DNA of 58,677 nt from a virus (IMGVR_UViG_3300046817_000092:1-58677); one strand, 5' to 3'; positions 11,999-29,543 are shown, counted from the stretch's first letter. Notes: generated from the letters alone by a model not told the origin. Made by a program: numbers and translations.

Positions 11999-12028
11999 TT
12001 GACAGTACGTGCGTCACCACGATAGGCT
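11999..12028 (+). promoter_or_regulatory. sigma70/SigA-type promoter
   Basis: TTGACA-18 bp-TAGGCT. Confidence 0.65.
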
Positions 12029-12089
12029 AGTGAGTATGCAAAGGTTCAACGGCGCACCCTACTTCACTCTTACTCAGAATGGAGTAGTC

Positions 12090-12410
12090 ATGCCGGATTC
12101 AAAGATGATGATTCGTGCCGATGCCAAAGCAATCGGAATGGTGACTGCACTAAGCACCACCAACCGTCGCAAGCCTCGCACGTATCCTCGCGCAAGTGAC
12201 TGCATCACCTACACCTACAAGGGTGAGTACGTACCGCACAAGTCGATGGATGAGCGTGACCGCACCGGCGCAACGATCTTCAAGAGCGCAAGAGCGGAAA
12301 AGCGCGCAACGTCCAAGCGTTCTTCGAGTGCTTCTGCCCCGAAGCGTTATCTCACTTCGGACGATCATCGGATCATGCGGGAACTGCCCGCAATCAACAC
12401 AGAGTACTAA
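12090..12410 (+). CDS. basic hypothetical early protein
   Basis: Start moved to ATG behind GGAG (MPDSKMMIR...). Confidence 0.65.
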   Translation: MPDSKMMIRADAKAIGMVTALSTTNRRKPRTYPRASDCITYTYKGEYVPHKSMDERDRTGATIFKSARAEKRATSKRSSSASAPKRYLTSDDHRIMRELPAINTEY

Positions 12411-12472
12411 ACCGCTCAAGCCTTGTAGGGTGCGCTCTTGAACCTTTGTTACAACACAACAAGAAAGGTGTC

Positions 12473-12679
12473 ATGGGTACACTAACCCTTGCACAGATTG
12501 ATGCCGCGTTGGAAATTGATAACCGCGGCAAGGCACCGAAAGCCGCTCGTTGGTTCGATGGTAACGAATGGCATAGCACCAATCCGCCGACTGGCTATAC
12601 TATCGGCATCTTTGAAGGTAAGGCCGGTAAGTCTCGCCGCTTCATCACTACTCGTTCGGTCGTTGCATACAAGCCTTAG
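12473..12679 (+). CDS. hypothetical early protein (MGTLTLAQIDAALE...)
   Basis: AGAAAGGTG RBS then ATG 12473. Confidence 0.7.
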   Translation: MGTLTLAQIDAALEIDNRGKAPKAARWFDGNEWHSTNPPTGYTIGIFEGKAGKSRRFITTRSVVAYKP

Positions 12680-12762
12680 TTGTTAGAACAGCCGATAGGC
12701 GCCGCGATAACGCGCTTAATCGTCCTATCGGCTATTCCAACTACTTAAGGGGGTGATAATAA

Positions 12763-12861
12763 GTGTTCAATCTGCCTCATCATGAATTGCGAGTTATTGT
12801 CGCGGTTATCCTGCTTTATGTACTAATGTTCGTGATATACAAGATCGCCGACCGCGCCTAA
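12763..12861 (+). CDS. 32-aa single-pass membrane peptide, not in ORF track
   Basis: AAGGGGGTGA RBS, GTG start, hydrophobic VIVAVILLYVLMFVIY. Confidence 0.6.
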   Translation: MFNLPHHELRVIVAVILLYVLMFVIYKIADRA

Positions 12862-12964
12862 CCCGCTAACGCGCCAATGATCCGCGATTTTAGTCGGATC
12901 GGCATGATTTTGCTAGCCTTTTTGTTGTTCCACCAGTCGCAGCCCCTTAAAGGGAAAAAGCTAA

Positions 12965-13078
12965 GGTGGATAACACGGATAACACGGATAAGTAGTACGT
13001 TTCTGTAGTATAATCACGTAGAGTATACTATAGGGTACAGACTGACGAATATTTGAGCCCGCAAGTATCTACTTATCC
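12965..13078. repeat. GGATAA iteron-like cluster, candidate replication origin
   Basis: GGATAACAC-GGATAACAC-GGATAAGTAG tandem plus inverted CTACTTATCC at 13069-13078, in a non-coding gap. Confidence 0.5.
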
Positions 13079-13219
13079 AAGTTCTTAAAGTTCTGACGAG
13101 CAAACAAGGTCGTAACTTTATCGAACAATCAGGTTCGTGAGGTTAGCAGCATAAGGTTTCCTAATGTGGACGAATACACCACATAAGAAATCCTGATCCC
13201 ACCACCCCGCGAATCAGGC

Positions 13220-13248
13220 TTGACATGCGAGTCCGAACCTGCTAGAGT
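13220..13248 (+). promoter_or_regulatory. sigma70/SigA-type promoter with extended -10
   Basis: TTGACA-17 bp-TAGAGT, TGn before -10. Confidence 0.7.
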
Positions 13249-13307
13249 TCTAATCACGGCCGGACGATTCCAGTCGGCCCGAGCTAACTTTTTTGACCAC
13301 ACTCACC

Positions 13308-13444
13308 AGATAGGCTTAATAAGGCACATAAGTAAGACGGTAGCACCTGACCCCATAAACCGCTCCGGTTACCCCGGATCGAACGTCAGTCATACCGCGA
13401 CCAATAAGCACAACGGTCACTTGTGTGTCTTATTAAGTCAATCT
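13308..13444 (+). ncRNA. long-stem structured RNA cassette
   Basis: ~26-bp closing stem with three G-U pairs, nested inner stems, ends at the RBS of the 13462 gene. Confidence 0.6.
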
Positions 13445-13461
13445 AGGAAGGGGGTGATAAG

Positions 13462-13677
13462 ATGGACGAACGAATGCGAATTGCAGAAATTAACGTGAAG
13501 GTAGGCGGAACTACGCCTAACGATGCAAAGCGTATTATGCGGCAAGCAGAAAAGGCTTTGCAGTCAGTCGAAGGGCTAACAGTAACGTCAATGTGGCTAG
13601 TTCGTGAAACGAACGTGCCACTAATTGACGAAGAACTTGATTCCGTGCTAAGACCAAAAGACGATTGGATACGCTGA
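13462..13677 (+). CDS. hypothetical protein
   Basis: 71 aa, AAGGGGGTGA RBS. Confidence 0.7.
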   Translation: MDERMRIAEINVKVGGTTPNDAKRIMRQAEKALQSVEGLTVTSMWLVRETNVPLIDEELDSVLRPKDDWIR

Positions 13678-13767
13678 CTAGAGTGAGGCTGTTAGGGTAA
13701 ATCCGGCGAGTCACATGGAATTGACCATGCGCTTATTAAGTGGATGCGGAATCGCACCCGTCGGTAC

Positions 13768-13796
13768 TTGACAGTCTCACGGTAGTCTGGTACAAT
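13768..13796 (+). promoter_or_regulatory. sigma70/SigA-type promoter with extended -10
   Basis: TTGACA-17 bp-TACAAT. Confidence 0.8.
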
Positions 13797-13850
13797 GCCA
13801 CTAGATCGTTAAAACAAACCGCAAACAGACATCGGAAGGGGGTGAACAAT

Positions 13851-14207
13851 ATGTCAGACATGATTCTTTCACTTGCTGAGATTGATGCAATCCTCGCAGA
13901 GCCGCGTCGTACTCGCGGTGAGTACAAGCCGGTTGTGACTAACTTCGCTGATTCCGGTGAGATTGCAATGGATCTCACGGCTCGTTTTCCTGGTAAGACC
14001 GCTGCAAGTCTTAAGCAGTCGGTCAATGTTAACATCGAGAAGCATGGTGTTAAGGAGAATTGGCCCGCATTCAAGCTGCTTATCACTGGTAAGGATGATG
14101 AGTCCACTGGTGAGAAGGCTACGCTGCTTCTCGTTAATCTCGATGCCCACGCTGCTGCTACGGCCGCTGCTAAGGCTGCTGAGGTCGATACCGACGACGA
14201 CGAGTAA
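13851..14207 (+). CDS. early protein, paralog family member 1 (MSDMILSLAEIDAIL...)
   Basis: AAGGGGGTGA RBS then ATG 13851; similar to the 21412 and 23092 proteins. Confidence 0.75.
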   Translation: MSDMILSLAEIDAILAEPRRTRGEYKPVVTNFADSGEIAMDLTARFPGKTAASLKQSVNVNIEKHGVKENWPAFKLLITGKDDESTGEKATLLLVNLDAHAAATAAAKAAEVDTDDDE

Positions 14208-14336
14208 GAACTAAGGGTCAGTCCAGCGGTAAAGATCGGATGTAGTGGCTGGAGTTAGGCCGATTACCCTTAGTAGTCCAGCTAACTAACGGGTCAAGCC
14301 GAGTTAGCTAATCGAAACAACGTAAGGGGGTGAATA

Positions 14337-14630
14337 ATGCATTACGTGATGAAGTATGAGGTCTACCAACAGTACGGTGGGCCGGAGGAAGGCGGATGGT
14401 GGTATGAGGAGGGTATTGCACAATGGCGATTCCCGATTCCTGTACCGTCCCAAAGTCTCGCCTACAGACTGTGCAGGGTTCTTAACGACCGCGAACACGA
14501 ACGTCGTAAGACTGAGTGTGATTATGAGTACACTTCAGTCTTGAGTGATCGTGATACGTTCTACGGTTACGGTATTGCTGATACATTCCGGCCGCAGAAC
14601 TACCCAGAGCTTAAACCGCATTACGAGTAA
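14337..14630 (+). CDS. hypothetical phage protein (YGGPEEGGWWY motif)
   Basis: 97 aa, strong RBS. Confidence 0.75.
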   Translation: MHYVMKYEVYQQYGGPEEGGWWYEEGIAQWRFPIPVPSQSLAYRLCRVLNDREHERRKTECDYEYTSVLSDRDTFYGYGIADTFRPQNYPELKPHYE

Positions 14631-14645
14631 GTTTCACGACAACGC

Positions 14646-14674
14646 TTGACAATCGCACCAACCTGTGCAAGAAT
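14646..14674 (+). promoter_or_regulatory. promoter overlapped by an inverted repeat
   Basis: TTGACA-17 bp-AAGAAT with TGn; CTTGACAAT...ATTGTCAAG palindromic arms. Confidence 0.55.
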
Positions 14675-14717
14675 TGTCAAGTAAGGAAACCGCGAACGAG
14701 GGAAGGGGGTGATTGCC

Positions 14718-14930
14718 ATATATACCGACACCAACTTCAAGACTAAGAAGGCACTTAAAGAGGCTGTTGCCGACGGTAAGGAAGTGACCGTATTTCAGCC
14801 TAACAACATCTTTGGTAACCCAACACCGAAAGACGGTAACATCACACTGGAAGGGCCGCACTATCCTGCACCACATTCCTGGTACGCTCAGGCTACGCTT
14901 AAGGATGGCCTGGTCATTAAGGTGAAATAA
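14718..14930 (+). CDS. hypothetical phage protein (NFKTKKALKEAV...EGPHYP.PH.WYA), probable ATA start
   Basis: The annotated GTG lies inside the RBS; ATA sits at the spacing used by sister genes. Confidence 0.7.
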   Translation: MYTDTNFKTKKALKEAVADGKEVTVFQPNNIFGNPTPKDGNITLEGPHYPAPHSWYAQATLKDGLVIKVK

Positions 14931-14962
14931 GTAACAAGCAGGGGTGCGGCTGCACAACGCAC

Positions 14963-15087
14963 AGTAGGGTTAATGAAGCAATTAGGATGGATATGAGGGG
15001 CGACAATTGCAGCCAAATCGTCCGTCCTTGCTGCAAGGAAAAGCGATCGGACAGATCGCCTGTTCTAATTGTCTCATTAACTCTATT
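14963..15087 (+). ncRNA. long-stem structured RNA cassette
   Basis: 28-position stem with six G-U pairs and one mismatch; two inner hairpins; followed by CAACGAAAGG RBS. Confidence 0.65.
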
Positions 15088-15110
15088 CAACGAAAGGGGG
15101 TGAACAAACA

Positions 15111-15560
15111 ATGAAGTATTCCGAGTTGGATGCCACGATCGTAAACCTGCGAGAGTGTGCTGATTGGCTTGAGTCTAATCCAAGGGCTATCGAATTGCCC
15201 GCGATGAGGTTTGAGTCACAAGAGCGGATTTACGAGTATGCTAAGAACGCTGATGGTACTACGGATTGGGAGACGGTTAACGAGTTTGCCGTCCGTAGTA
15301 AGATGCGTCAAATCGCGAAAGCTCTGCGCAACGCTACGAAGGATTATTCCGGTCACGTCTTTAGGCTTACTAAGACGTTCGGTGATAGTCGATGGTCTAA
15401 GGGTTCTGTTACACTTGACTTCACTTCGGATCGTAACGCAATCTGCCGTAAGGTAGTCAAAGAGACTAAGCTTATTCCAGAAAGGACAGAGGTTTATCCT
15501 GCTAGGACAGAGGAAGTGGTAGAGTGGGTGTGCGACGACGCACTACTCGCCTCTAAGTAA
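15111..15560 (+). CDS. hypothetical phage protein
   Basis: 149 aa, strong RBS, C-terminal EEVVEWVC. Confidence 0.75.
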   Translation: MKYSELDATIVNLRECADWLESNPRAIELPAMRFESQERIYEYAKNADGTTDWETVNEFAVRSKMRQIAKALRNATKDYSGHVFRLTKTFGDSRWSKGSVTLDFTSDRNAICRKVVKETKLIPERTEVYPARTEEVVEWVCDDALLASK

Positions 15561-15596
15561 GTTAAAGGACGTAAAGAGGGTACGATACAGATTCGT

Positions 15597-15762
15597 GCCC
15601 CCGGAGTGACTATTAGTGAGTTCATCACTTAACAACTCGTTAAACCCAAAGGTTAATATCCCGTTCACAGGATAGATACCGCGTGTTCAGGTAGAGTTGG
15701 CTAGTAGAGTTGACTTCACTCAGCCACGTATAAGGTCGCAGGTTTGAATCCTGCCGGGGGCT
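15597..15762 (+). ncRNA. tRNA-like RNA with enlarged core
   Basis: 7-bp acceptor GCCCCCG/CGGGGGC, T-arm GCAGG-TTTGAAT-CCTGC, AGGTC variable loop, ~130 nt between acceptor 5' strand and variable loop. Confidence 0.65.
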
Positions 15763-15817
15763 GCTCTTTACCTAGTAACGAGGCGTCATAATCCACGCCT
15801 ACCTTTAACACTAGCTC

Positions 15818-15961
15818 GTAAGGGCTAGTGGGATTTAGTGAAGTGTTACAAGGAATGACAAAGGAAGGCCCGCTGCAACGGTTAACCTTCTACAAATCAT
15901 TCGCTCTTGCAGGAGAATCCGGCTTTCGTCGGCACATTCACTAAGTCCCACTAGCTCTTAC
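15818..15961 (+). ncRNA. long-stem structured RNA cassette
   Basis: GTAAGGGCTAGTGGGATTTAGTGAA / TTCACTAAGTCCCACTAGCTCTTAC, 25 bp with two G-U pairs; rod-like interior plus side hairpin. Confidence 0.65.
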
Positions 15962-15965
15962 AAGC

Positions 15966-16130
15966 CTAACGTCGATTGTACCTGTTACCGCAGATAGTAA
16001 GACAAAGCCCTAAAGGTTGATGCATAAATGGTTAGGTGCCAAATTAGAGGCATAAAAGAATGATCCGGTTAAACTCCGCGCATTACCTAATCCGCTAGCT
16101 GCTACTTCTGCCATTAGAGGGAGACGTTAG
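15966..16130 (+). ncRNA. possible structured RNA
   Basis: CTAACGTC/GACGTTAG closing stem, nested GCAGATAGTA/TACTTCTGC; no credible ORF. Confidence 0.4.
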
Positions 16131-16136
16131 AACAAA

Positions 16137-16257
16137 AGTAGAGTTAATGAGCTAATAGCCGGAACCGAAGTGACCTGACACTGACTAAGAGGAAGTGACT
16201 AGCCTCCGGTGATTAGGTGCCTAGTCAGCAGATGGTTATTAGCTCATTAACTCTATT
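16137..16257 (+). ncRNA. long-stem structured RNA cassette
   Basis: 24-bp stem with two G-U pairs, inner CTGACTA/TAGTCAG; ends at the AACGAAAGGAGG RBS of NADAR. Confidence 0.65.
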
Positions 16258-16278
16258 AACGAAAGGAGGGTAGACACC

Positions 16279-16701
16279 ATGATAGGAGCATTCTCGGGAA
16301 AGTGGAAAGGATTATCTAACTTTGAACCTTGCGAAATAGTCTGGGAAGGGTTAAGATTTCCAACTACTGAACATGCTTTTCAGGCTGCTAAGACACTTGA
16401 CATGGATGAGCGTCATGTGATAAGATTGATGAAATCTCCTGGTCAAGCTAAACGTGCTGGACGAGTTGTTACACTTAGACCGAATTGGGAGGAAATCAAG
16501 ATTCCCACAATGGAACAGATTGTTAGACTCAAGTTCATTCAACCTGAGTTCAAAGAATTGTTACTTTCAACTGGTGAACAAGAATTACAAGAGGGTAACT
16601 GGTGGGGTGACACGTTCTGGGGTGTCTCCATCCAAACAGGTAGAGGCCGTAACGAGTTAGGTAAGATCCTAATGAGACTTCGTGAATCGCTTGAGAGTTA
16701 A
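16279..16701 (+). CDS. NADAR (YbiA-like) family hydrolase
   Basis: LSNF, PTTEHAFQAAK, K..GR, LLSTG..EL.EGN.WGDTFWG, G.N.LGKILM.LR motifs. Confidence 0.92.
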   Translation: MIGAFSGKWKGLSNFEPCEIVWEGLRFPTTEHAFQAAKTLDMDERHVIRLMKSPGQAKRAGRVVTLRPNWEEIKIPTMEQIVRLKFIQPEFKELLLSTGEQELQEGNWWGDTFWGVSIQTGRGRNELGKILMRLRESLES

Positions 16702-16702
16702 G

Positions 16703-16731
16703 TTGACACAGAGGCAGAATGCTGCTAGACT
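16703..16731 (+). promoter_or_regulatory. sigma70/SigA-type promoter with extended -10
   Basis: TTGACA-17 bp-TAGACT. Confidence 0.75.
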
Positions 16732-16817
16732 GTATAATCAACGGCATGGTGTCAACTCACCATATCGCAGACTTTTCCACGGTATAGCATATATAGCTAG
16801 AAGGGAGGTTTACCGCC

Positions 16818-17066
16818 ATGTACGATGATGAAGGTTACGACGATTACGACCGCGATGATGACGAATACCGCATCGACTTTGCTAATCCTGGCTCTGCACT
16901 AAGAGCCGCATCGGCATCAAATCCCCGTAACTTGCCTTGTCCTAGTTGTCACTGGCCAAACCGCTTGACGCCAGAGGATGTTGCACACCACTATCAGTGT
17001 GATAGTTGTGCCAACGCTGCTGAAACAGGCCGTGACATTGACTACTACGAAGGTGATGATGAGTAA
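16818..17066 (+). CDS. small Zn-ribbon protein
   Basis: CPSC...CDSC; GGGAGG RBS. Confidence 0.7.
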   Translation: MYDDEGYDDYDRDDDEYRIDFANPGSALRAASASNPRNLPCPSCHWPNRLTPEDVAHHYQCDSCANAAETGRDIDYYEGDDE

Positions 17067-17086
17067 TTATGGGAGGGTGATTCATA

Positions 17087-17248
17087 ATGGGTTGGGTTGT
17101 TGTTATTCCATCAGTCGGTAAATCTCCAAATCTGCACAAGTTGTTGGGGTATGAGGTTATCAGAGACGTGTCAGTTTCTGCCACGATGACCGCTATTGCA
17201 CTTGATCGTGCGGCAACTAAAATCGACAGGTCTTTTAACCGCAACTGA
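17087..17248 (+). CDS. small hypothetical protein (53 aa), not in ORF track
   Basis: GGAGGGTGA RBS, ATG..TGA. Confidence 0.55.
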   Translation: MGWVVVIPSVGKSPNLHKLLGYEVIRDVSVSATMTAIALDRAATKIDRSFNRN

Positions 17249-17258
17249 CCGCTTTATC

Positions 17259-17342
17259 GCCCCGATGGTGGAATTGGCATACACAACAGACTTAAAATCT
17301 GTCGCCTGTAAAGGCTTGAGGGTTCGAGTCCCTCTCGGGGCA
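17259..17342 (+). tRNA. tRNA-Leu(UAA)
   Basis: GCCCCGA/TCGGGGC acceptor, ACAGA-CTTAAAA-TCTGT anticodon arm, long variable arm, GAGGG-TTCGAGT-CCCTC; no encoded CCA. Confidence 0.95.
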
Positions 17343-17359
17343 TTCATCTACAAAGAAAG

Positions 17360-19392
17360 GTGGTGAATCTAATGAGTGATGATGCAATTATTATCGACAC
17401 GCCTGATGGTATTGAGGCTTATCGACTTTTGGCTATTAAGGGCCGTCTATGGCTTGAGTTGAAGGGTATTCACTTTAAGCCACTACCGGGTTACGGTTCA
17501 ACATTCTCTTACGTCAAAAAGACGTATGGATTTAAAGGCCCCAAAGTTGATGTATACTATCGGTACGTTGCTATGCTCAAGGAGAGAGGAGTGTTACAGG
17601 AAGATGTATGTGACTAAGACACCTGCTGAGAAAGAAGGGTTTGTTGTACTTAAGTGCAAACCTTGCACAGTGTGTGGTACTACAAAAGAGTTCACACTTA
17701 ATGATATGGCTGTAGCTGCTTGGGAGGCTGGTGGGCATATTCAGAAGGTTATGCCAGACTTGACCCAAATGGATCGTGAGACACTTATCTCTGGGGTTTG
17801 TAGTGATAAGTGTTGGGACGAGTTGTGGGGTGAAGGGTTTGAGTAAGCCATTCGATCACACTGATCCTAATACATTCGTTAGGAATCAAAAGGTGTGGAT
17901 TATGATTGATGGTAAGCGTGTTATGGGAATTTATGATGAACCTAGCGGTGATGGTTTTCACTACGTACACACAGTTGAGACACCTGCTGGTTCATACAGA
18001 GCAACATCATCGGAAGTCACTGAACGTCACATCTAACGAAAGGAGTTAGCATGAAGTATCTAGTTCTTAGGAATGAGGCAATTCACCGTAAGGGTCGGAA
18101 GTCTCAGATGAACAGTAGCATGTTTCCGATCGAGATTGAGGTTGAAAACTATAGAGCGATGGAGTATAGTTCAGAACAAATCGTGCGTATGGCACTTGAT
18201 ACCATCAACCCCGGTTATGTGGGCATGTATGAGTATGTGGTAGTCCCCATGTTCAATGCAAGCGTAGTCCAGTTTAGGCCGGTTAAGCCTCAGCTTGATG
18301 TTCAGGTTAAAGCATACGACGACTCAAGCCGAGTTAGGTAAGCCATGTCATTCACGTTTAGGACAGACACCGCAATTGGTGAACACTACTTCGAGAAGCC
18401 TAGTTGGGCTACCGATGCTTTCGTTCTTGTGGTGGATATGCCTGGTCGTGCAACATTGGACGTACTGAGGACGAATCTATCTGAGTGGATTAGACAGATT
18501 GATGAGATTAGAAAGCTAATGAAACCGCTAGGAGAATGGGATGAGGACTAAAGCTCTCCTACATACCACTACCTGTGCAGATTGTAAAAGAGAAGATCCG
18601 CCGGTTGTTAAAGCCGCAGCAGTAACAATCTGCATTAATGGAATACCGCGAGGATTTTGCGTACAACATCTAATCGACCATAAGGACCCAAAGGTGCGAG
18701 CCGCTATTAAGGGTGAAGCACCTGAAATTGAAGCACTTATTGAGGAACTGATGATGAAGGGAGTGTGATGCATAGAAACAATAGCCCACTTCGTGCGTAC
18801 ATTATGTATGCGCAACTTAACAATGTTACAGAAGCTGAGGGTTGGAAGATTTGGAACAGGGTTCTTAATCCTGGTGCCAACTCCGAGTTCTTTAGAATTG
18901 AGTGGGATAAGTGTAAGAATGGTCATTCCGACTATGACTTTGAGTTGCAGAAGTTGAACTTAACCATTCACGACAGGAGAGAGGATTAACGTGTCAAAAA
19001 CACCACGAACATTGGTCTTACGTAAGAGTGTTGGGCCATATAGTGCTGGCACCCCAATGAATAAGGTAGACTATGGTGGAGTCATTGATTTGAGTTTAGT
19101 AGAGATGTTGCGTTCACGCACAGATATTGTGCCTGCTGAGAACCGCTCAACTAGACGTGCAAAGAGTGGTAAGAAGCTAGTCTATGATATGCTCCATGCC
19201 AATTTTAACACCAATGCGTAACGGTGGGGTATATTGTACTACCGAAACAATTAAAACGTATTCAAGAGTTAAGCACAACCGCGGAAAGTATTGAGTTGTT
19301 ATGGTTGCCTGGAGGCATACTTCTAATCACTTGGATAAAAGGTCAAGCCCACAGACACCGAATCGACAGGGATGGGGTTGTAAAAGATGAAT
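17360..19392 (+). CDS. run of about nine closely packed small hypothetical early genes (17360, ~17604, ~17839, 18051, 18345, 18541, 18765, 18991, 19224), several with CxxC motifs
   Basis: Overlapping or abutting ORFs, most with RBSs; no function recognised. Confidence 0.6.
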
Positions 19393-19436
19393 AATCTAGT
19401 ATGGCATCTGTATGAGAAGGTGGTGATTAACAAGCA

Positions 19437-20024
19437 ATGAACCTAAACAGTCTGTGGCAAGGAAGTGATTATGCTTATTACCAGTCCAAAGGTCGTGGTG
19501 AAACTTACCGCCGCGGTGCATTACGTGTTCGTGTCATTAGAACCTTTGGTGAGGTATTGTATGGTAATACGCGAGAAACAGGGTTCGCTGATGTTCTCCT
19601 AATTGATGAGGAAGGTGAGCCTAAAGAGGATGATTATGGTAGGCATATCACCCGTAAGGTTAAAGCGCGTGATATCGCTATGCTTTGGGAACAGTATGAG
19701 GAAGAACATGCTGATCGTGAGGTAGAGCGATTAGAGCGCGAAGCGCGTTATGCAGAAGAAAGACGTGAGCGTGATGAACGCTATGCTAAGTTAAATGCAG
19801 AGCGTATTGAGCGTGAGCGTATTAATGCCGAACGTCGTGCTGCTGAGTTAGCCGAATTTAACCGGCAGAAGGCAATTACCGAACAAAAGATCTATGACCT
19901 TCTGTACTTGGGTGGTATTGACAAGTCGTGCGTAACAAGTATCTCAGACTATTCGATTACATTGGATCGTAGAAAACTTTTAAATGAACAAATGGAGGAA
20001 AAAAGTGAGCCAGTTAATGGATGA
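19437..20024 (+). CDS. hypothetical protein with long E/R coiled coil
   Basis: 195 aa; AAGGTGGTGA RBS. Confidence 0.7.
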   Translation: MNLNSLWQGSDYAYYQSKGRGETYRRGALRVRVIRTFGEVLYGNTRETGFADVLLIDEEGEPKEDDYGRHITRKVKARDIAMLWEQYEEEHADREVERLEREARYAEERRERDERYAKLNAERIERERINAERRAAELAEFNRQKAITEQKIYDLLYLGGIDKSCVTSISDYSITLDRRKLLNEQMEEKSEPVNG

Positions 20025-20361
20025 AAGTTCTAACACAAGAGGATTATCGGGTGATGAAATCACCAAACTGTTAACCACCGAACGAATGAATCAACAGCAT
20101 GATCCTGCTGCTAGATGGCCGGTGCTTGAAGATATGTTACTTCTTGCACAGGCTGTGAATGAGAGGTCACACTTCGTTACATTCACTGGTGGAAAGAGAT
20201 ATGTTATCAGGTATAAGAGTCGGTACAAGGCTGTGTTCATTAGCCCCGATGATCCAAAGTTATTCGTGCCTTGTGGTTACTTCGGTTACGAGAACTTACA
20301 GGGTCTATTGAAAGAGTTAAAGCAGGCCGCCGAGTCGGACGATGATGTTTCGGGAACGTGA
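20017..20361 (+). CDS. hypothetical protein
   Basis: Likely start MDESSNTRGLSGDEITKLL overlapping the previous stop. Confidence 0.6.
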   Translation: MDESSNTRGLSGDEITKLLTTERMNQQHDPAARWPVLEDMLLLAQAVNERSHFVTFTGGKRYVIRYKSRYKAVFISPDDPKLFVPCGYFGYENLQGLLKELKQAAESDDDVSGT

Positions 20362-20512
20362 GAAAAATTGCCCAAACAAAAAGAAACACACTAAGGGGGC
20401 ACCTGAGGGTTATGCAGATTGGTTCGATTGGGCTGAAAAGAAGGAAAAAACTCACAAGCAGACCAGATGCGAAGGATGTGGATTGTATGTTATATGGGTC
20501 AGACGTAAATGA
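20342..20512 (+). CDS. small Zn-binding protein (PEGY..W..WAE...TH.Q.RC.GCGLY.IW), not in ORF track
   Basis: 56-aa ORF filling the gap, ATGA-coupled to 20509. Confidence 0.65.
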   Translation: MMFREREKNCPNKKKHTKGAPEGYADWFDWAEKKEKTHKQTRCEGCGLYVIWVRRK

Positions 20513-20844
20513 GTAGCCTAAATGACGATCTAATCGCACAACTCTTAAAAGAGGAAGCGGCTAATCCCACAACCTCGTCCGGTGGAACTAGAACAAGAGG
20601 CCCAAAGGTTGATCCTACTGCAATAAGAGAGATTAACGTCTGGATGAAGTTAAACCATCATATGTGCTTACCTGATTGTGAACATCGTGGTGACCCACCG
20701 CGGGCCTTAGCGTGTAGTAATCCTAATTGTGTGGATACGCGAGGTCCAGAGGATAGAGGCCGTAATATTGTAGCCCTAGTCAAAGGTCAGTATGTATGTC
20801 GGTATTGTTTCTTAGGTCGCTATTTGAAAGTTGATGGTGAATGA
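20509..20844 (+). CDS. Cys-rich hypothetical protein
   Basis: 111 aa, CLPDC, CSNPNC, CRYC. Confidence 0.65.
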   Translation: MSSLNDDLIAQLLKEEAANPTTSSGGTRTRGPKVDPTAIREINVWMKLNHHMCLPDCEHRGDPPRALACSNPNCVDTRGPEDRGRNIVALVKGQYVCRYCFLGRYLKVDGE

Positions 20845-21357
20845 GTGAGTAGTGATGTTGGATCGGTTAAGGCCGAACAGCCTAAACTGTTTAGTTACTG
20901 CAATTCATTGTATGAGTTTATGGACTCTAATAGCACACCGGGTCTATCTGACACCGATACGCCAAACAATGATATTCAAGTGTGGCGTGGAAGGCTATTA
21001 GAGACTTGTGAGTCTTTAGGTATACCGAAGGGAGGCACAACTAGGGTAGTTGGTGCGTTACGCGCTTTAGGATGCGTCGAACAGATAGCGCGAGGCTTTA
21101 GAGGTACTGCACTTAGCGAGTTTATCCTGCACTACCCTCCGACCGCCGAGGTTTGGGCCGCGTCGTCTGCCCTGAATGTAAAGTCTCGGGCGGAAGGCTT
21201 GACACGCGGGCCGTCACCTGATAGACTGGCGGCAGACGTGAGGGACTTGAAGCAACAGCTAGGAGGTATTAATTTAATAGAGGCGATAGCAGAATTAGAC
21301 CGTAGAATCAGTAAGTTAGAAAGTTTAGTAAAGAACGGAACCGCAGAAGTTTCGTAG
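20845..21357 (+). CDS. putative winged-helix DNA-binding protein with C-terminal coiled coil
   Basis: helix-LGI-helix-LGCVEQ..RG.RG pattern. Confidence 0.55.
   Translation: MSSDVGSVKAEQPKLFSYCNSLYEFMDSNSTPGLSDTDTPNNDIQVWRGRLLETCESLGIPKGGTTRVVGALRALGCVEQIARGFRGTALSEFILHYPPTAEVWAASSALNVKSRAEGLTRGPSPDRLAADVRDLKQQLGGINLIEAIAELDRRISKLESLVKNGTAEVS
21199..21227 (+). promoter_or_regulatory. intragenic promoter driving the 21412 gene
   Basis: TTGACA-17 bp-TAGACT with TGn, inside CDS 20845-21357. Confidence 0.7.
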
Positions 21358-21411
21358 TAGTACGACAAACACAAAGCGCAATAAAGCGCAAATAACAAGG
21401 AGAGATACATT

Positions 21412-21771
21412 ATGTCTGCACTTTCACTCGATGCCATTAATGATCTGCTTAAGGGTGGAAAGACCCGCGGCGATTATGATGGCGTGCTTGATAACTTCCT
21501 TTCCAGTGATGATGCTGGTATCGAGGTTGACCTCACTAGTGGTCCTCTCGCTGGTAAGGATGCAAAGAACGTCGTGACCGGATTCAATAACGCTAAGACT
21601 CGTATGGTTAAGGAGACGGGTCAGCCGAAGCATCCGGGTGGTCATGCTGTTAAGGTTATTAAGCGCACGGTTGGTGAGGGAGACTCTGCTGTTGACCATG
21701 TTTTCCTTATTAATACCGCGAAGGTTGGCGGCGCCGCAACTGAGGCACCGGCAGAAGCACCTGCTGAGTAA
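21412..21771 (+). CDS. early protein, paralog family member 2 (MSALSLDAINDLL...)
   Basis: AAGGAG RBS; TRG.Y..V..NF..S alignment with the 13851 protein. Confidence 0.75.
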   Translation: MSALSLDAINDLLKGGKTRGDYDGVLDNFLSSDDAGIEVDLTSGPLAGKDAKNVVTGFNNAKTRMVKETGQPKHPGGHAVKVIKRTVGEGDSAVDHVFLINTAKVGGAATEAPAEAPAE

Positions 21772-21777
21772 CTAATA

Positions 21778-22127
21778 AGTGTGGGATGGGGTTAGCTTCC
21801 ACAGTAACCCCATCTCATACTGTACCCCAGGTGAGAGTAGTGTTAGCCGCTACGGGCATTACTCAATATACTGGGGTACAGTATGGGAATCTCATAATGA
21901 ACCACTGGTGAAGGTGCGACAGTAGCCAAGAGTAATCAGTGGTTCATTATGGGAAGTGTCGCAAATTGCGCTAGGCACTATCCAGAAGTGGTAGGGGTAA
22001 GCGCACACTACTACCTACCACATAAGAAATTTGGAAGAGTTCTTAGTCGGACTAAGTTAGAGGAAATCAATGCAACGGTACAGATCGTTGGTTGACTAGA
22101 TTCACTTAGTCCGACTAAGGACTTTTC
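21778..22127 (+). ncRNA. tandem array of five long hairpins
   Basis: Stems at 21778-21821, 21813-21888, 21890-21954, 21988-22021, 22034-22127, with G-U pairs on the plus strand. Confidence 0.65.
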
Positions 22128-22150
22128 TTAATAACTAGGAGAGAGGCACC

Positions 22151-22405
22151 ATGAAGATCATAACCACTTCATACGAGGATTTCATCAAGAGTGAGATCAA
22201 GGAACATGGCTTCGATTATGTAGAAGCACAGTTCCTCATGGGTTATGAGCCTGCGTTTACTAATGGTGTCTGGTTATGGGCGGGTGATAAGGCTAATGCA
22301 ATCCCTTTACGCATTAATCTCGGCAATCGTCACAACGCTAGTAATAGTCTATCTAATAGCGGTGGTCGTGTACTGGCTCGCATAACTGGCAAGAGTGGAT
22401 TGTAA
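22151..22405 (+). CDS. hypothetical protein
   Basis: 84 aa, AGGAGAGAGG RBS immediately after the last hairpin. Confidence 0.65.
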   Translation: MKIITTSYEDFIKSEIKEHGFDYVEAQFLMGYEPAFTNGVWLWAGDKANAIPLRINLGNRHNASNSLSNSGGRVLARITGKSGL

Positions 22406-22422
22406 AGTCCTTAAGTTGAGGG

Positions 22423-22451
22423 TTGATTTCTTTACTCCATTGTGCTATACT
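22423..22451 (+). promoter_or_regulatory. promoter followed by a ~250-nt hairpin-rich leader
   Basis: TTGATT-17 bp-TATACT with TGTGn; hairpins TGGTGGGGTTAT/ATAACCCCACCA and 22629-22675 follow. Confidence 0.65.
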
Positions 22452-22706
22452 GGCCGCATGGCAGCGCGCGCCTGGTGGGGTTATATGCGGTTTCGCGGTT
22501 TCCGTAATAACCCCACCATTTTTCTTTACGCTGATAACTGGGTTAGTGCCCCACAACGCGCTAACTCAGTTAGGAGCGTAACGCTCCGAACACCCCAGAA
22601 CCACCCCCAGGGTCACGCAGACCCTAAAAGTGATAAGGGGGCTAGCTACAATAGTGGTCTAGTCCCCTTATTACTGTCTCTGTAAACTAAGCAGGAGGTC
22701 GGCGTC

Positions 22707-23063
22707 ACGTTACGTCGTATTGTCCCCATACTGATAATTGCGGTCATTTGCATTGCCGCAGTTAACACAGCCAAGGCAAGTAGACTAACGCACAAAGATT
22801 TAGACGCTTGGATTTGCATTCATAATGGAGAGGGTGCCTGGAATGCAGCCACTGGTAATGGATATTATGGTGGGTTGCAGATGGACTTAGGATTTCAGCA
22901 AACGTACGGGTCAGAATATCTTGCTAAGTATGGAACGGCAGATAAATGGCCCACTTGGATACAGATTAAAGTAGCACGTAGAGCAAGAGATGGTTATCAT
23001 GGGCATGGAGCAAGAGGTTATCATCCGTGGCCTAATACTGCGAGGTATTGTGGCCTAATCTAA
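22707..23063 (+). CDS. secreted Rpf-like lytic transglycosylase, probable ACG start
   Basis: W.CIH.GEG.WN.ATGNGYYGGLQM, Q..VA, PWP..A..CG motifs; signal peptide ending AKA; frame extends 56 codons upstream of the track ORF. Confidence 0.85.
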   Translation, partial: TLRRIVPILIIAVICIAAVNTAKASRLTHKDLDAWICIHNGEGAWNAATGNGYYGGLQMDLGFQQTYGSEYLAKYGTADKWPTWIQIKVARRARDGYHGHGARGYHPWPNTARYCGLI

Positions 23064-23091
23064 TGAAGGGGTGTGAGGGCGTGTTATTGGA

Positions 23092-23319
23092 ATGACTGAG
23101 AATGGACAACAAAAAATAACAGCTAGAGACGAGATACAAAACTTCTTGTTAACGAACGAAGCTGGTATCATTAGTTCATTCTCTGCGCCAGCACTAATTA
23201 AGGCCGCTGAGTCTCTTTACACAGCTAATGGACTACAGTGTCCTGTCAAGATACTGAACACGAACGGTTCGGTGCTGCTGATTAACAGGGAGGTCTATCT
23301 TGCCTCTCAAGCGCCGTAG
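23092..23319 (+). CDS. early protein, probable paralog family member 3
   Basis: NFLLTNEAGI and VKI...VLLIN segments match the 21412 protein. Confidence 0.6.
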   Translation: MTENGQQKITARDEIQNFLLTNEAGIISSFSAPALIKAAESLYTANGLQCPVKILNTNGSVLLINREVYLASQAP

Positions 23320-23491
23320 ACTTTCGTTCGTTAATGATGATGGTGAGGAAACATACTCAGAAATGTTACTCACTATGTCAGAAGAAGATATTGTTGAGCG
23401 TGAACAACTTAATGCAGCAAACACCACAGGTGCTCGTAGAGCAGCCGTTGTAGCAGAACTTACTAAAAGTAACGGTCACGCAACTAGGTGA
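23300..23491 (+). CDS. hypothetical protein
   Basis: 63 aa filling the gap; GGGAGG RBS. Confidence 0.55.
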   Translation: MPLKRRRLSFVNDDGEETYSEMLLTMSEEDIVEREQLNAANTTGARRAAVVAELTKSNGHATR

Positions 23492-23494
23492 CTG

Positions 23495-23983
23495 ATGAGT
23501 TCTGTTGAATTAGAAGTATGTTCCTCTTGTGGTGAGTTTGTATTAACGCTCAATGAGGAAACGGGCTGGTGTGACCCTTGTAGTGGGGTCACATCAGTCC
23601 TACGTTGTCGTACTTGTAACTTCATCATAGACGAAGGTAAGTACTGCAAACGATGTAAATATCTGTATTGGATGGAAACAAATGCAGACGAGATTGAACG
23701 ATATATGGTGGTCTTTTGTGTTACGGCAACTATCGCCAAACGTCAGGTTCGTGATAATAACCGACCTTTGTGTCATAGCTGCGGTAACCCAATTAAAGGC
23801 GGCACCAAAGGTCGTCACTTCTTTTGTAAGAAAACCGCACACTGTGTGAAAGCACACAATTCATATAACTTTCATCGAAGGATACAAAACCGCTCGCACG
23901 AGGAATCAATCCAACGAGCAGTAGTAGCTTCACAAATACTCAAACTCACGAATGAAGCATTAGGAGGTGAATCGCATGGTTAA
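23495..23983 (+). CDS. multi-Zn-finger protein
   Basis: Five CxxC motifs plus FCKKTAHC. Confidence 0.7.
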   Translation: MSSVELEVCSSCGEFVLTLNEETGWCDPCSGVTSVLRCRTCNFIIDEGKYCKRCKYLYWMETNADEIERYMVVFCVTATIAKRQVRDNNRPLCHSCGNPIKGGTKGRHFFCKKTAHCVKAHNSYNFHRRIQNRSHEESIQRAVVASQILKLTNEALGGESHG

Positions 23984-25826
23984 AAATCTTTCAGAAGATG
24001 AATATAACCGCATGATGGGCATTGTGCCTAAGCCTGCACCAGTTGAACCTGCACCACCTGTGCAGGAATTAGGTACAAACGGGTCCGCGCCCGTTAAGTC
24101 TATTGAGTCTCAGCTTGATGATGAAGACTTAGCTATCATTGCAATGGATGATGATGAACCTGTTGTCGTTGAAGATGACTCTCAGATTTTTGATAGTTAC
24201 ACTAAGAAGTTTGTTAAGCAGGAATGGCAGATTATCGATATCTTCCATCTGTTGCGTTCCTTTGAACGTGGTGGTGCTAGTTCACCTAATGCTGGTACTG
24301 CGAATTGGTCCGAGATGGGCTGCTTTAAAACCAGCACAGGGTTGTGGTATAGTGAGCGTATGATTAATGAGGCTATAACCGCGAACAAGCTCAAGAACGC
24401 AAAAGCGCCTAGTATCCTTATTGTGACTAGTAAGGGTGGTAAGGGTACATACTTTGAGGCTATTCCTGAGATTCTGCCTGAGTGGACTATTATCAATATT
24501 GAAACTCAGCAGCTCTTTGTGCTTATGAATGGGCAGATGTTACCCCTTCCGAAAGATACACACAAGTTCGTTCCCAAAGAGTTTACGATGCCTACTGTCT
24601 GTATTGCTCATTATGACATTTTCAGTCGAAGCAATCATGGAAAGTTTGAGACTGATAATGAGGGCAATCCTATTCAGATTGATGGCAAGTTTATCTTTAA
24701 GGAGCCGTTGCAGTCAGATCATATTGCTAACCGCGAATGGGATATTATGATCTGCGATGAGTTCCACCGCTTAAAGGATCGTAATGCTAGATGGACTGTT
24801 AACATCAAGCGTGTTAAGACCCGTATCGGTCGGCATGGTATGACTGGTACTGGATTTATTAACCGGCCTGATGAGATTTGGTCATTATTGAACTGGCTGG
24901 ACAAATCGCGGTTCGGTTCGTTCAACAAGTTTAAGGAAGTATTCTGCGAGATTGATACAGGCGATGATGGATATGCTCGTGTTATGGGGTGTAAGCCTGA
25001 AATGCAAGATGCGTTCCGTGCTCTTGTTAGAGACATTGGAGTGCGTCGTACACTTGATGGAGTTATGCCTCATATCAAGCGGCCTGTGTTCGTACCGATC
25101 GACGTTGACCTTAATAAGGAACAGCGTCGTATGTACGATGCAATCCGTATGGACTTGAAAGCATTAGATCAGGCTGGTACTCCACTGTATGCAGCTAATG
25201 TCTTGACGTTACTTCAACGGTTGAGGCAAATCTGCGTAGCAACACCGGAGGTAGTTGAGGACTATTATGATCCGGTGTTAGAACGCCGATTCCAGAAGGT
25301 ACGGTTAGTTGAGCCGTCAAGTAAGCTGGATGAGGTTATGAGGGTGCTTGAAGGCTTACAGTGGGATGATGAAAAGAAGGAGCCACTGGTTATCTTTAGT
25401 AACTTCAAGGACCCGCTTGAATTGCTCAAAGCCCGTCTTAATAAACACAATACATTCATCACGGAAAATGGTTTCCATGATGATATGCTCTACAAGTATA
25501 TTCACCTAGATGTGAAGGACAGTGATGTTGAACGCTACCGTAAGTGGCACGACGAGTTTCCAAAACTTGAACACAGAGTATTCATGTCCACTCTACAGTT
25601 GGGTGGGGAGTCTATTAATCTCACACCCGCAAGGCACGTCATATTCCTCGACCGTTCGTGGTCCCCTAAAGACAATGCACAGGGTATCGGACGTATCAGA
25701 CGACCAGGACAAGAAGGTCAGCCCGTAGTTATTCATATCAACGCTAATAATACCACTGACCAGTATATCGAACAGGTCAATGATATTAAGCAGGGTTGGT
25801 ACAATCAGATCTTCGGTGATGAATAG
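23976..25826 (+). CDS. SNF2-family helicase/ATPase
   Basis: EMGCFKT motif I, DEFH, TGT, LRQ, GGESINL, QGIGRIRRPGQ; start behind AGGAGGTGA. Confidence 0.9.
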   Translation: MVKNLSEDEYNRMMGIVPKPAPVEPAPPVQELGTNGSAPVKSIESQLDDEDLAIIAMDDDEPVVVEDDSQIFDSYTKKFVKQEWQIIDIFHLLRSFERGGASSPNAGTANWSEMGCFKTSTGLWYSERMINEAITANKLKNAKAPSILIVTSKGGKGTYFEAIPEILPEWTIINIETQQLFVLMNGQMLPLPKDTHKFVPKEFTMPTVCIAHYDIFSRSNHGKFETDNEGNPIQIDGKFIFKEPLQSDHIANREWDIMICDEFHRLKDRNARWTVNIKRVKTRIGRHGMTGTGFINRPDEIWSLLNWLDKSRFGSFNKFKEVFCEIDTGDDGYARVMGCKPEMQDAFRALVRDIGVRRTLDGVMPHIKRPVFVPIDVDLNKEQRRMYDAIRMDLKALDQAGTPLYAANVLTLLQRLRQICVATPEVVEDYYDPVLERRFQKVRLVEPSSKLDEVMRVLEGLQWDDEKKEPLVIFSNFKDPLELLKARLNKHNTFITENGFHDDMLYKYIHLDVKDSDVERYRKWHDEFPKLEHRVFMSTLQLGGESINLTPARHVIFLDRSWSPKDNAQGIGRIRRPGQEGQPVVIHINANNTTDQYIEQVNDIKQGWYNQIFGDE

Positions 25827-25832
25827 ACCATC

Positions 25833-26171
25833 ATGCCATTAACGTTTGAGGACAGAGAACTTATTAAGCAAGTTCGTTCGCTTAGAAAGAAACAAGCCCT
25901 TAACGTGGGTGATGGTCGTGATGGCACTAGACCCAAGCCTGGACCTAAACCCACAATAGTTACATATGAACAATATCAAGCTAAACAAGCAATTAAAGGA
26001 ACACGCAAAACAGCTTCCAATAGAGACAGAATATCAATGCAAGGATATTCATGGGTAACTTGGAAGATATTAAAGTGTGATACTTGCTTGAAAGAAGCGA
26101 GTAAGCACGCTAATCTCCGGTTCAGACATAACCTGGACTGTCCACTTAGGCCCACAAGTGATACAAATTGA
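25833..26171 (+). CDS. basic hypothetical protein
   Basis: 112 aa, CDTC...H...C. Confidence 0.6.
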   Translation: MPLTFEDRELIKQVRSLRKKQALNVGDGRDGTRPKPGPKPTIVTYEQYQAKQAIKGTRKTASNRDRISMQGYSWVTWKILKCDTCLKEASKHANLRFRHNLDCPLRPTSDTN

Positions 26172-26174
26172 CCC

Positions 26175-26203
26175 TTGACTTTTCGGGCCGAGTGTGCTAT
26201 AAT
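26175..26203 (+). promoter_or_regulatory. strong promoter for the recombination/replication genes
   Basis: TTGACT-17 bp-TATAAT with TGTGn. Confidence 0.85.
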
Positions 26204-26263
26204 GCAGCATACCGCAAGTTCACAAATCACGCAACGCAACTAACCGCGAAAGAGAGATAAACC

Positions 26264-27622: not shown

Positions 27623-27975
27623 ACGGTCTTGACTTTGATACCATCAATGAACTACTAAAAGGTGAGACTAAATCTGAGTCTGGAATGACAACAGGCACAG
27701 AAGGTCAGCCTATTAGTAAAGCTCTCAGTCAGCGTCTAAAGGAGTTATATCCAACAAGACCTCAGATTGGACCACTACGTTACACAGACACAGAGAATAG
27801 ATGTATGAGCAGGAATTGTAGAGCACCAACTCATTACAAACTATTCGGTGTACCTAAGTGTGACATTCATTGTCTTAGAGAAATGAATCTCTTACTCGTT
27901 GACACAGAAGAACTCAAGTCTCAACACGAATCTCAATCCGAACAAGTCGAACCGGAGGTTCCAGGTCTATTATGA
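27619..27975 (+). CDS. hypothetical protein with Cys/His motif
   Basis: ATGA-coupled start MNGLDFDTINELLKG; CMSRNC...CDIHC. Confidence 0.65.
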   Translation: MNGLDFDTINELLKGETKSESGMTTGTEGQPISKALSQRLKELYPTRPQIGPLRYTDTENRCMSRNCRAPTHYKLFGVPKCDIHCLREMNLLLVDTEELKSQHESQSEQVEPEVPGLL

Positions 27976-28886: not shown

Positions 28887-28913
28887 TCGTCTCAAATCAC
28901 GAAAGGTGTTATA

Positions 28914-29408
28914 ATGTCTGTTGATGAACAGAATGCGGTAGATGGTTTTCCTGCTACGCTTGACCTCTCTACTGCTGATACTCGCGGCAATCTCATGGAT
29001 AACGGTTGGAAGGATGCAATCGTTTTTGAGGTTACGCCGGTTCTTACTGAGAATCCGAATGGCAACCTGCCTGTCGGTACGCCTGGTATCAATGTAGCAT
29101 TCAAGATCGACGGTGGTTCTTACGATAACCGTCGTGTTTGGAACTACTATTGGATGCCTACCGCTGATGGTGGTTATGACGCTGAGAAGCGCATGAAGTT
29201 GTTAGGTATGCTTGCAAGGTTCCTCATCGCAATTGGTTATTCTGATGAATCTGTCAAGTCTCCTAGCTTCACACTTGACTTCGCTGATATGCAGGGTCGT
29301 GAGTGCTCCATCAACACGAAGTATGATGAGGAGTACGACAACAACAAGGTTAGTGGTGTTAAGGCCCGCAAGGAAGGTACTTCTTCCGCTGGTGCTGGTC
29401 TGCTCTAA
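28914..29408 (+). CDS. single-stranded DNA-binding protein (DUF669-like)
   Basis: GW.DA.VFEV, FKI..G.Y.NR.VW, D..GREC.I, N.V..V pattern; follows Sak4. Confidence 0.75.
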   Translation: MSVDEQNAVDGFPATLDLSTADTRGNLMDNGWKDAIVFEVTPVLTENPNGNLPVGTPGINVAFKIDGGSYDNRRVWNYYWMPTADGGYDAEKRMKLLGMLARFLIAIGYSDESVKSPSFTLDFADMQGRECSINTKYDEEYDNNKVSGVKARKEGTSSAGAGLL

Positions 29409-29543
29409 AGATTAACAATTTGGGCACACCGAGGCTTATAGAAAATAAGAGAAGCGTCGGAGGGAAGGGTGGTTTGATCTGGTGAAAGCGCGTAAGTAGC
29501 CAGTGAGAGGTAGGTGTGCCTATTCTTATGAATAAGGAGATCA

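Follow-up and report, generated by a model that had tools for sequence, protein, structure and literature searches.

Long-stem RNA cassettes with a conserved helix base in the early region of a siphophage and its relatives

Results

We found a family of long-stem RNA cassettes in the early region of a siphophage that is represented by a single virus record of 58,677 bp (IMGVR_UViG_3300046817_000092:1-58677; the window, that is, the whole stretch of DNA that was analyzed). Each cassette is an inverted repeat that folds, as RNA, into a helix around an interior. The elements are strand-specific, keep their pairing by compensatory change, have helices of constrained length, occur across a clade of related phages and are enriched in the early region, and their interiors are not conserved. 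We tentatively favor the view that they are cis-acting modules of double-stranded RNA in early mRNA that are cut by an RNase III-type enzyme or act as insulators, and that are followed by a very strong Shine-Dalgarno sequence (SD).

Long stems in the early region of the phage

An earlier reading of this DNA, made from the sequence alone (the original prediction), had listed eight inverted repeats between plus-strand genes and had proposed that they act as RNA. All eight were present, at or a few bases from the coordinates it gave (E1 to E8; Table 1). We folded both strands of each element, and the plus-strand RNA had the lower minimum free energy in 8 of 8 cases (for example, -53.4 versus -40.7 kcal/mol for E2, -50.5 versus -40.2 for E5, and -31.7 versus -19.3 for E6). 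The six long elements had fold z scores of -6.2 to -9.9 relative to dinucleotide shuffles. The plain folds of the two shorter elements were weak (z of -2.1 for 14210-14275 and -2.5 for 29422-29521).

We used a stem finder (at least 16 bp and a score of at least 14) and 30 dinucleotide shuffles as a control for chance. There were 9 long stems in positions 12001-24000, compared to a mean of 0.1 in the shuffles. There was 1 in 24001-38400, and there were 3 in the remaining 30.6 kb. Helices of the window elements are 17-29 bp. Three stems inside the range 13308-22675 had been overlooked by the original prediction: a small hairpin at ~21785-21821 and stems at 21813-21888 and 21890-21954, the last two of which have a frame in common that is distinct from the others.

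It had also been claimed that nearly every departure from Watson-Crick pairing is a G-U on the transcribed strand. In 10 stems between 13306 and 23600, the non-Watson-Crick positions were 23 G:T, 4 A:C and 2 other, in agreement with this claim. Because the G:U excess is strand-specific and because there are compensatory changes (below), we conclude, as the earlier reading did, that selection acts on the RNA of the plus strand.

Long stems are a property of the early region across a clade

We collected relatives using the SNF2-type helicase of the phage (gene at 23976-25826). With the helicase as query, there were 5 related virus contigs and 19 metagenome loci; with a helicase alignment as query, there were 80 virus loci with helicase identities of 37-64%, and six genomes were taken whole or in large part. 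Statistics for the clade are from 61 non-redundant related loci. Upstream of the helicase gene there were 108 long stems in 348 kb (0.31 per kb), and downstream there were 31 in 578 kb (0.054 per kb), a density ~6-fold higher upstream. The upstream stems had 140 G:T compared to 47 A:C positions (binomial p = 6e-12). At least one stem was present in 37 of the 42 non-redundant loci that have at least 2 kb upstream of the helicase. Based on the upstream enrichment and the excess of G:T, the stems are therefore a property of the early region of the clade and of its transcribed strand.

Other probes were also used on the viral contigs. A 149-amino acid early protein found no relative, and the exact pattern of the 3' frame of E2 and E4 found no match. 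Two loose frame patterns gave matches that were mostly chance, and after filtering by protein likeness and folding, L038 was the only locus that was a true relative and also had the hairpin. In one relative (L020, 892-3315), the helicase match spans 2424 nucleotides (nt) for 569 residues, and the gene appears to contain several hundred inserted bases.

Conserved frames, covariation and helix length

The original prediction described two elements, 14963-15087 (E2) and 16137-16257 (E4), that share a frame around unrelated inserts. The common frame was confirmed and the interiors have no similarity; in this sense the elements are modular. E1-E4 and the cassettes of six other genomes share one degenerate frame (class I), with the consensus TAGGG(T/C)TA(A/G)TGA in the 5' arm and TCA(C/T)TAAC(T/C)CTA in the 3' arm, that covers the basal 12-14 bp. 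In one relative (G007), six consecutive class I cassettes are each followed, after a few bases, by an SD and start codon.

The class I alignment comprised 22 elements of 7 genomes. Of the cells in the 17 outer pairs, 94.2% were paired, and 13 of the 17 pairs had double-sided changes. The covariation score was 0.537, compared to 0.207 in shuffles (none of 500 reached 0.537), and slid controls of the same alignment were 31-49% paired. Thus, the homologs show the covariation that had been suggested as a check of the elements. In the upper part of the helix the sequence varies freely and pairing is kept. A G.U is frequent at the second G, and one position has G.U in 11 of 22 elements, G-C in 7 and A-U in 2.

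A second class of frame (class II) is common in relatives and absent from the window; in it, an invariant G.G mismatch separates a basal helix of 5-6 bp from a long helix. Where a helix was made of 5 bp, one mismatch and at least 10 bp, the mismatch was G.G in 41 of 91 on the plus strand compared to 3 of 53 on the minus strand. Class II elements also occur in tandem, 2 nt apart.

A third arrangement (family B) consists of a small hairpin and a long hairpin located right past the stop codon of orthologs of 21412-21771, a conserved gene of 119 amino acids. An 8-10 nt purine-rich word occurs there as word, complement and word, such that the middle copy can pair to either side. When we read the sequences by eye, the changes in the three copies were concerted in 13 of 15 genomes. 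The two-hairpin motif may be a switch.

The length of the helix is also constrained. With single mismatches counted as helix, the median was 22 bp (n = 122), and it was 23 bp (quartiles 20-25) for the 75 helices with an interior of at least 30 nt. In 19 strict class I elements, positions 17, 18 and 19, which were not used for selection, were paired in 19, 19 and 17 of the 19, and at positions 22 and 23 pairing dropped to 10 and 6 of the 19. Together with 2-3 pairs outside the anchor, the strict class I helix is ~two turns long.

The conserved base could mean that the helices are address tags. That is, a dedicated sequence-specific RNA-binding protein from the phage or the host, perhaps an antiterminator or a translational regulator, might read the base of the helix with its G.U or G.G. 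Consistent with this, the sequence of the base is kept even between phages with helicase identities of only 37-64%, the G.U recurs at one fixed position in half of the aligned class I elements, the invariant G.G of class II (41 elements) is flanked by conserved pairs, and family B has a covarying three-part word with alternative pairing. However, we found no candidate for such a protein: Pfam (71 open reading frames [ORFs] of the window) and PHROGs (20 early and middle proteins) identified no RNA-binding or nuclease family except PD-(D/E)XK. In addition, the conservation could stem from exchange between cassettes. We consider this reading distinctly unlikely.

Location of the cassettes relative to genes, promoters and terminators

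All of the window elements lie between plus-strand ORFs, downstream of sigma-70-like promoters and upstream of SDs, and from this location they are predicted to be transcribed (Table 1). Most elements had been said to end within about 20 nt of an SD. This is so for E1, E2, E4, E5 and E8, and for E6, which is not followed by a clear start codon, but not for E3 and E7. E1, E2, E4 and E5 end 1-10 nt before the SD. The SDs themselves are unusual: for early genes the energy of the duplex with the 3' end of 16S rRNA is -15.8 to -21.4 kcal/mol, compared to mostly -7 to -13 elsewhere. In the clade, 28 of 119 distinct stems are followed, no more than 25 nt away, by an SD-led start (ORFs of 40 codons or more), compared to 4.6% of random positions. 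The only word shared at the starts is the SD itself.

Table 1. Coordinates of stems, promoter-like sites and neighboring RNA features in the window
Feature	Position	Strand	Remarks
Stem, 22 bp, 24-nt loop	12678-12745	+	strong SD and short GTG ORF directly after; non-Watson-Crick positions are A:C
Promoter, sigma-70-like, extended -10	13220-13248	+	~60 nt upstream of E1
E1, class I cassette	13306-13446	+	helix 28-30 bp; interior 81-85 nt; SD 1-2 nt past stem; ATG at 13462
E7, weak short stem (z -2.1)	14210-14275	+	second small hairpin next, then SD of the gene at 14337
E2, class I cassette	14963-15087	+	helix 25-28 bp; interior 69-75 nt; ATG at 15111, SD -21.0 kcal/mol
tRNA-like element and hairpin	15600-15813	+	7-bp acceptor-like stem closing ~150 nt, ends in T arm
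E3, class I cassette	15814-15965	+	helix 29 bp; interior 94 nt; no gene start after
E4, class I cassette, frame as in E2	16137-16257	+	helix 24-25 bp; interior 71-73 nt; ATG at 16279 (NADAR-domain gene)
Family B: small hairpin and long hairpins 21813-21888 and 21890-21954	21785-21954	+	directly after stop codon of conserved gene 21412-21771; 8-nt word in common that can pair to either side
E5	22029-22132	+	stem 29 bp; interior 46 nt; ATG at 22151
Promoter-like site (22423-22451) and ~420-nt leader	22423-22875	+	4-5 hairpins, no convincing ORF; last hairpin is E6
E6, last hairpin of long leader	22629-22675	+	within 22423-22875
E8, separate RNA motif	29413-29531	+	closing stem 9 bp; interior conserved

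Sigma-70-like promoters with an extended -10 box occur in the early region and, like the SDs, may point to a Gram-positive host. Promoter-like sites (13220, 13768, 14646, 16703, 21199 and 22423) are all outside E1-E6. One of them is just upstream of E1, which is therefore in a 5' leader. We also noted three likenesses to other systems and gave them no weight: a boxA-like word after E2 and E4 that is not kept in relatives, a translational-enhancer-like word in the 3' arm, and promoters for a phage RNA polymerase, a type of enzyme that was not found among the window ORFs.

The stems do not look like plain intrinsic terminators. They are stable hairpins in intergenic gaps, as terminators would be, and the inner part of E5 gave a match in a terminator scan, the only one, and a weak one, within E1-E6. 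However, there is no run of T after E1-E4 or E6; an SD and start codon follow instead (except for E3, which has no gene start after it). Furthermore, the region has 8 terminator-like sites compared to 11.3 expected. Termination as the sole function is scarcely credible.

A helix in this location would not have to be cut to be useful. As an uncleaved structural module, it could insulate the ribosome-binding site from the sequence before it, block 5'-to-3' and 3'-to-5' exonucleases and hinder the loading of Rho where long stretches are untranslated, with no endonuclease involved. The anatomy (z of -6 to -10, enrichment before SD-led starts, strong SDs) fits this notion equally well. E1, in its leader, has no upstream cistron to be separated from, and E3 and the tandem stems at 21785-21954 are not beside a start. 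In addition, a 5' stem-loop together with ribosome binding is reported to stabilize mRNA in Bacillus subtilis (PMC7509114). On the other hand, neither a length of two turns nor conservation of the base is needed for stabilization, for which 8-12 bp are enough in known cases. We therefore regard uncleaved modules as possible, if rather unlikely.

The interiors are not conserved

Most of the elements had been said to enclose separately folded sequence, and the enclosed sequences were proposed to be released by a nuclease as a panel of small structured RNAs. The enclosed sequence is present, but its structure is modest (z of -0.16 to -2.48). Under the same frames, the interior ranges from 3 to 157 nt. 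An all-against-all comparison of 93 distinct interiors gave 3 weak matches. The window interiors, considered as possible spacer-like copies, had no match above chance in the phage itself or in its relatives. A search of Rfam had been recommended; it gave no family match, with only two tRNAs reaching the gathering score in the whole window and nothing credible at E values up to 5 in 12400-23200.

Relative to their surroundings, the interiors have slightly more structure (mean z of -1.28, n = 56, compared to -0.80 in flanking controls, n = 104; p = 0.0016). This difference is one of several points that fit the full model of the original prediction, in which the helices are processing stalks that release functional RNAs. 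The architecture is like that of the processing stalks of rRNA, the same early region has a tRNA-like element and true tRNA genes, and one related interior has a T-arm-like word. Nevertheless, the near absence of matches among interiors, their range of lengths, and the outright replacement of an orthologous interior, in length and sequence, between near-identical genomes (below) do not support a panel of functional small RNAs, and the fold scores are only slightly below those of the flanking controls. We think that this model is very unlikely.

A different use of the interiors would be by a dedicated double-stranded RNA factor that reads the G.U and G.G tags and cuts out the interiors. These hypervariable sequences would then form a rapidly evolving library of small RNAs (decoys or guides against host defenses, for instance), with whole interiors swapped between phages via the conserved arms. 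We give this idea equally little credence.

Turnover of early genes and possible exchange between phages

The early genes are mosaic. Ten of 30 early and middle window genes had no homolog in the relative loci, many had one to five, and 21 of the 30 had homologs in 0-4 loci. The gene at 16818 is 64-75% identical in phages whose helicases are 41-52% identical. The gene directly after E4 (16279-16701) encodes a NADAR-domain protein (Pfam E = 1.5e-24) and may be an anti-defense gene. In three relatives its homologs are elsewhere, just upstream of the helicase gene. Homologs in other locations are sometimes, but not regularly, preceded by a cassette.

Two relatives (L215 and L216) are near-identical over most of ~1.1 kb and differ by two replaced blocks that end inside conserved stems. 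In a family B hairpin it is the interior that was replaced outright, and in a class II element it is the upper part; the arms were kept. We then asked if divergent blocks in general end at stems. We compared 6 pairs of close genomes, and one pair had no divergent block. Of the 59 blocks in total, 2 had a flanking helix of 10 bp or more, so replacement of interiors as a general mode of divergence was not supported.

Conserved inverted-repeat arms around variable insides, in a mosaic region with two replaced blocks that end in stems, could also indicate elements that function only as DNA, such as miniature inverted-repeat transposons (MITEs), attC-like sites or cruciforms. Several results argue against this. 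The bias of G:T over A:C is strand-specific, and the compensatory changes preserve G.U but not pairing in DNA. All of the elements are in one orientation, on the transcribed strand. E2 and E4 have no flanking direct repeats, and their flanks differ. Block boundaries are not enriched at stems in general. Finally, Pfam recognized no transposase, integrase, recombinase, reverse transcriptase or RNA polymerase among 71 ORFs, and the integrase/recombinase family was likewise not found in a separate scan of 20 window ORFs. A function limited to DNA is highly improbable.

Neighboring structured RNAs

One of the eight elements, 29422-29521 (E8), is not a member of the cassette family as had been thought. 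It is a separate motif of ~120 nt, and its interior is conserved among six distinct phages. Covariation is seen in the 9-bp closing stem, and 11 of 17 predicted pairs have double-sided changes. A covariance model gave 7 matches in 97 sources, and the genes downstream of the copies are unrelated. Rfam gave nothing credible for 29300-29650 at E values up to 10. We regard E8 as a candidate new phage RNA, distinct from the cassettes. Directly after it, among replication genes, is a gene (29544-30191) for a protein of 215 amino acids with a signal-like N terminus and collagen-like Gly-X-Y repeats.

The 3' part of the tRNA-like element at 15600-15813 is conserved in two relatives (L204, 1830-2050, and L200, 400-630). 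A class I cassette follows this element both in the window (E3) and in L200. ARAGORN, run with introns and low thresholds on 15500-16300, gave only weak overlapping calls, and neither ARAGORN nor Rfam called 15600-15813 a tRNA.

The layout of 22423-22875 is kept in another relative (L031, 2250-2660), with stems changed on both sides. This region is either a long structured leader or a non-coding RNA.

The phage genome

The window is a near-complete siphophage genome, with an estimated completeness of 98%. Its gene products include a family A DNA polymerase with a fused uracil-DNA-glycosylase domain, a PD-(D/E)XK nuclease, a RepB-primase/DUF3987 protein, and a Mu-like portal, tail tube and tape measure. 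The structural genes are on the minus strand, and the early and replication genes are on the plus strand (~12 kb to 38 kb). Just upstream of the polymerase gene, 33493-33807 encodes a 105-amino acid protein with the N-terminal domain of dATP/dGTP diphosphohydrolases (Pfam E = 2.3e-33), which hints at altered nucleotide pools or modified DNA.

Neither megablast nor blastn matched the window to the GenBank phage collection, and the best match of the helicase protein among GenBank phages was below 27% identity. The phage thus belongs to a lineage without a cultured member in that collection. Its DNA is present in 24 sequencing runs, all from soil or rhizosphere. Contigs of the phage from 4 of the DNA runs were identical to the window and so contribute neither variants for covariation nor information on RNA ends.

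Discussion

A proposed mechanism and the evidence against it

Each module consists of a ~two-turn helix whose base is conserved and whose interior is unconstrained, and many modules end 0-25 nt before an unusually strong SD. We suggest that a host endonuclease of the RNase III type, specific for double strands, cuts the two-turn helix. In this way the leaders and cistrons of early polycistronic RNA would be separated from each other: the RNA upstream of the cut would retain a 3' half-stem, and the downstream mRNA would start a few bases ahead of an SD whose complementarity is up to 12 nt. A 30S subunit bound to such an SD could protect the 5' end made by the cut. The excised interior would be a by-product and not the payload. 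The conserved basal sequence may have a second role, as short homology between the cassettes of different phages that would aid the exchange of early orphan genes. Cleavage, the enzyme, stabilization and recombination are the steps that we infer. The Pfam scans of the window ORFs identified no RNase III encoded by the phage. Since the phage has no recognizable RNase III, reverse transcriptase, integrase or RNA polymerase, the reader of the helices would be a host enzyme or an unrecognized protein.

Several results weigh against this proposal. The sequencing runs that contain the phage are all DNA, with no RNA run among them, and cleavage, RNA ends and transcription are deduced from promoters, SDs and gene orientation. 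By our criteria, 74 of the 119 stems in the clade have no SD-led start within 100 nt. One stem, 12678-12745, is an exception to the strand rule: it has 0 G:T and 2 A:C positions, and its bias is reversed, with the minus strand folding to -37.0 and the plus strand to -27.9 kcal/mol. RNase III needs little sequence, yet the basal 12-14 bp are conserved and carry G.U signatures, or the G.G of class II, which hints at a more specific reader or another role. The long interiors are left unexplained except as tolerated filler; a plain hairpin would suffice for processing. Recombination at stems is not general either, because the 2 of 59 divergent blocks that are flanked by a helix compare to 1-3% of random placements.

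Comparison with known systems

The RNase III sites of the early RNA of phage T7 are at stem-loops. The cassettes resemble the sites of T7 and of phage SP82 in that stem-loops with related sequences are repeated in leaders and between early cistrons with a ribosome-binding site next to them. The length of the cassette helix, ~two turns (median 22-23 bp), is also like that of RNase III sites. Unlike those sites, which we compared by description, the cassette helix closes a long, branched interior (about 20-170 nt) and not a simple loop. Other differences are that the basal sequence is conserved across the clade, that there is a sister class with an invariant G.G, and that cleavage here is only putative. 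In B. subtilis, RNase III cleaves SP82 early RNA, a non-native target (PMC4838370), and mutating the ribosome-binding site of an SP82 mRNA shortens its half-life (PMC7509114).

The PeSLs (promoter-early stem-loops) of T4-type phages are conserved regulatory motifs that consist of a stem-loop with an SD on its 3' side, located between orphan genes in hyperplastic regions, and modular shuffling was proposed for them (PMC2839356). The cassettes are similarly among variable orphan genes, with an SD after E1, E2, E4 and E5. PeSLs also include a strong sigma-70 promoter and have stem-loops that are terminators, whereas the cassettes have neither a promoter-like site nor a run of T. Cassette helices are longer and have long interiors, and recombination is suggested by two block ends alone. 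By analogy with the proposal for PeSLs, the conserved arms may serve as recombination linkers.

The SAS and ESAS of Cluster K mycobacteriophages are another case. SAS is a conserved 13-bp start-associated word found at the starts of non-structural genes in one orientation, with no function assigned to it, and about half of the copies have 17-bp imperfect inverted repeats (ESAS) just upstream with spacers of mostly 4-13 bp (PMC3203893). The authors found little support for a hairpin in mRNA (PMC3203893). Like ESAS as described there, the cassettes are inverted repeats near translation starts, in one orientation and with a variable spacer. Unlike ESAS, the spacers are about 20-170 nt, pairing is kept by compensatory change, there is no sequence likeness, and the phage lineages are unrelated.

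Precursors of rRNA have stalks in which flanking sequences form a helix, cut by RNase III, around a large interior. The 30S precursor rRNA is named as an RNase III target (PMC4838370). In those stalks the interior is the conserved product, whereas in the cassettes it is the least conserved part. The cassettes also have features of mobile repeats. Correia-type elements are transcribed and cut by RNase III. Their interiors are conserved, they are accompanied by target duplications, and many copies are dispersed in both orientations. The cassettes are like them in having arms of ~20-30 bp around an interior of ~50-100 nt in intergenic DNA. Unlike Correia-type elements and MITEs, they have no conserved interior, no target duplication, and neither both orientations nor many dispersed copies. 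Unlike integron attC sites, there is no integrase nearby (71 ORFs and the scan of 20 ORFs).

Thus, the cassettes differ from the T7 and SP82 sites, PeSLs and ESAS in having a long unconstrained interior closed by a two-turn helix, a basal sequence with fixed non-canonical pairs that is shared across the clade, tandem arrays and clear compensatory change. A search of the literature found no description of such a cassette family, although the search was narrow and does not prove absence from print.

Implications

If our proposal is correct, then the cassette is a portable module of the 5' untranslated region, a two-turn helix with a conserved base and a near-maximal SD, that would make newly acquired early genes both expressible and stable. 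It would link RNA processing to the modular evolution of the early regions of phages, and it would extend ideas that so far come from T7 and SP82, from the PeSLs of T4-type phages and from the ESAS of mycobacteriophages, which are unexplained. The finding would weigh much more if the interiors are functional. The fixed G.U and G.G signatures are a handle for finding the factor that reads the helices. The cassettes could also serve as natural insulator parts in synthetic operons.

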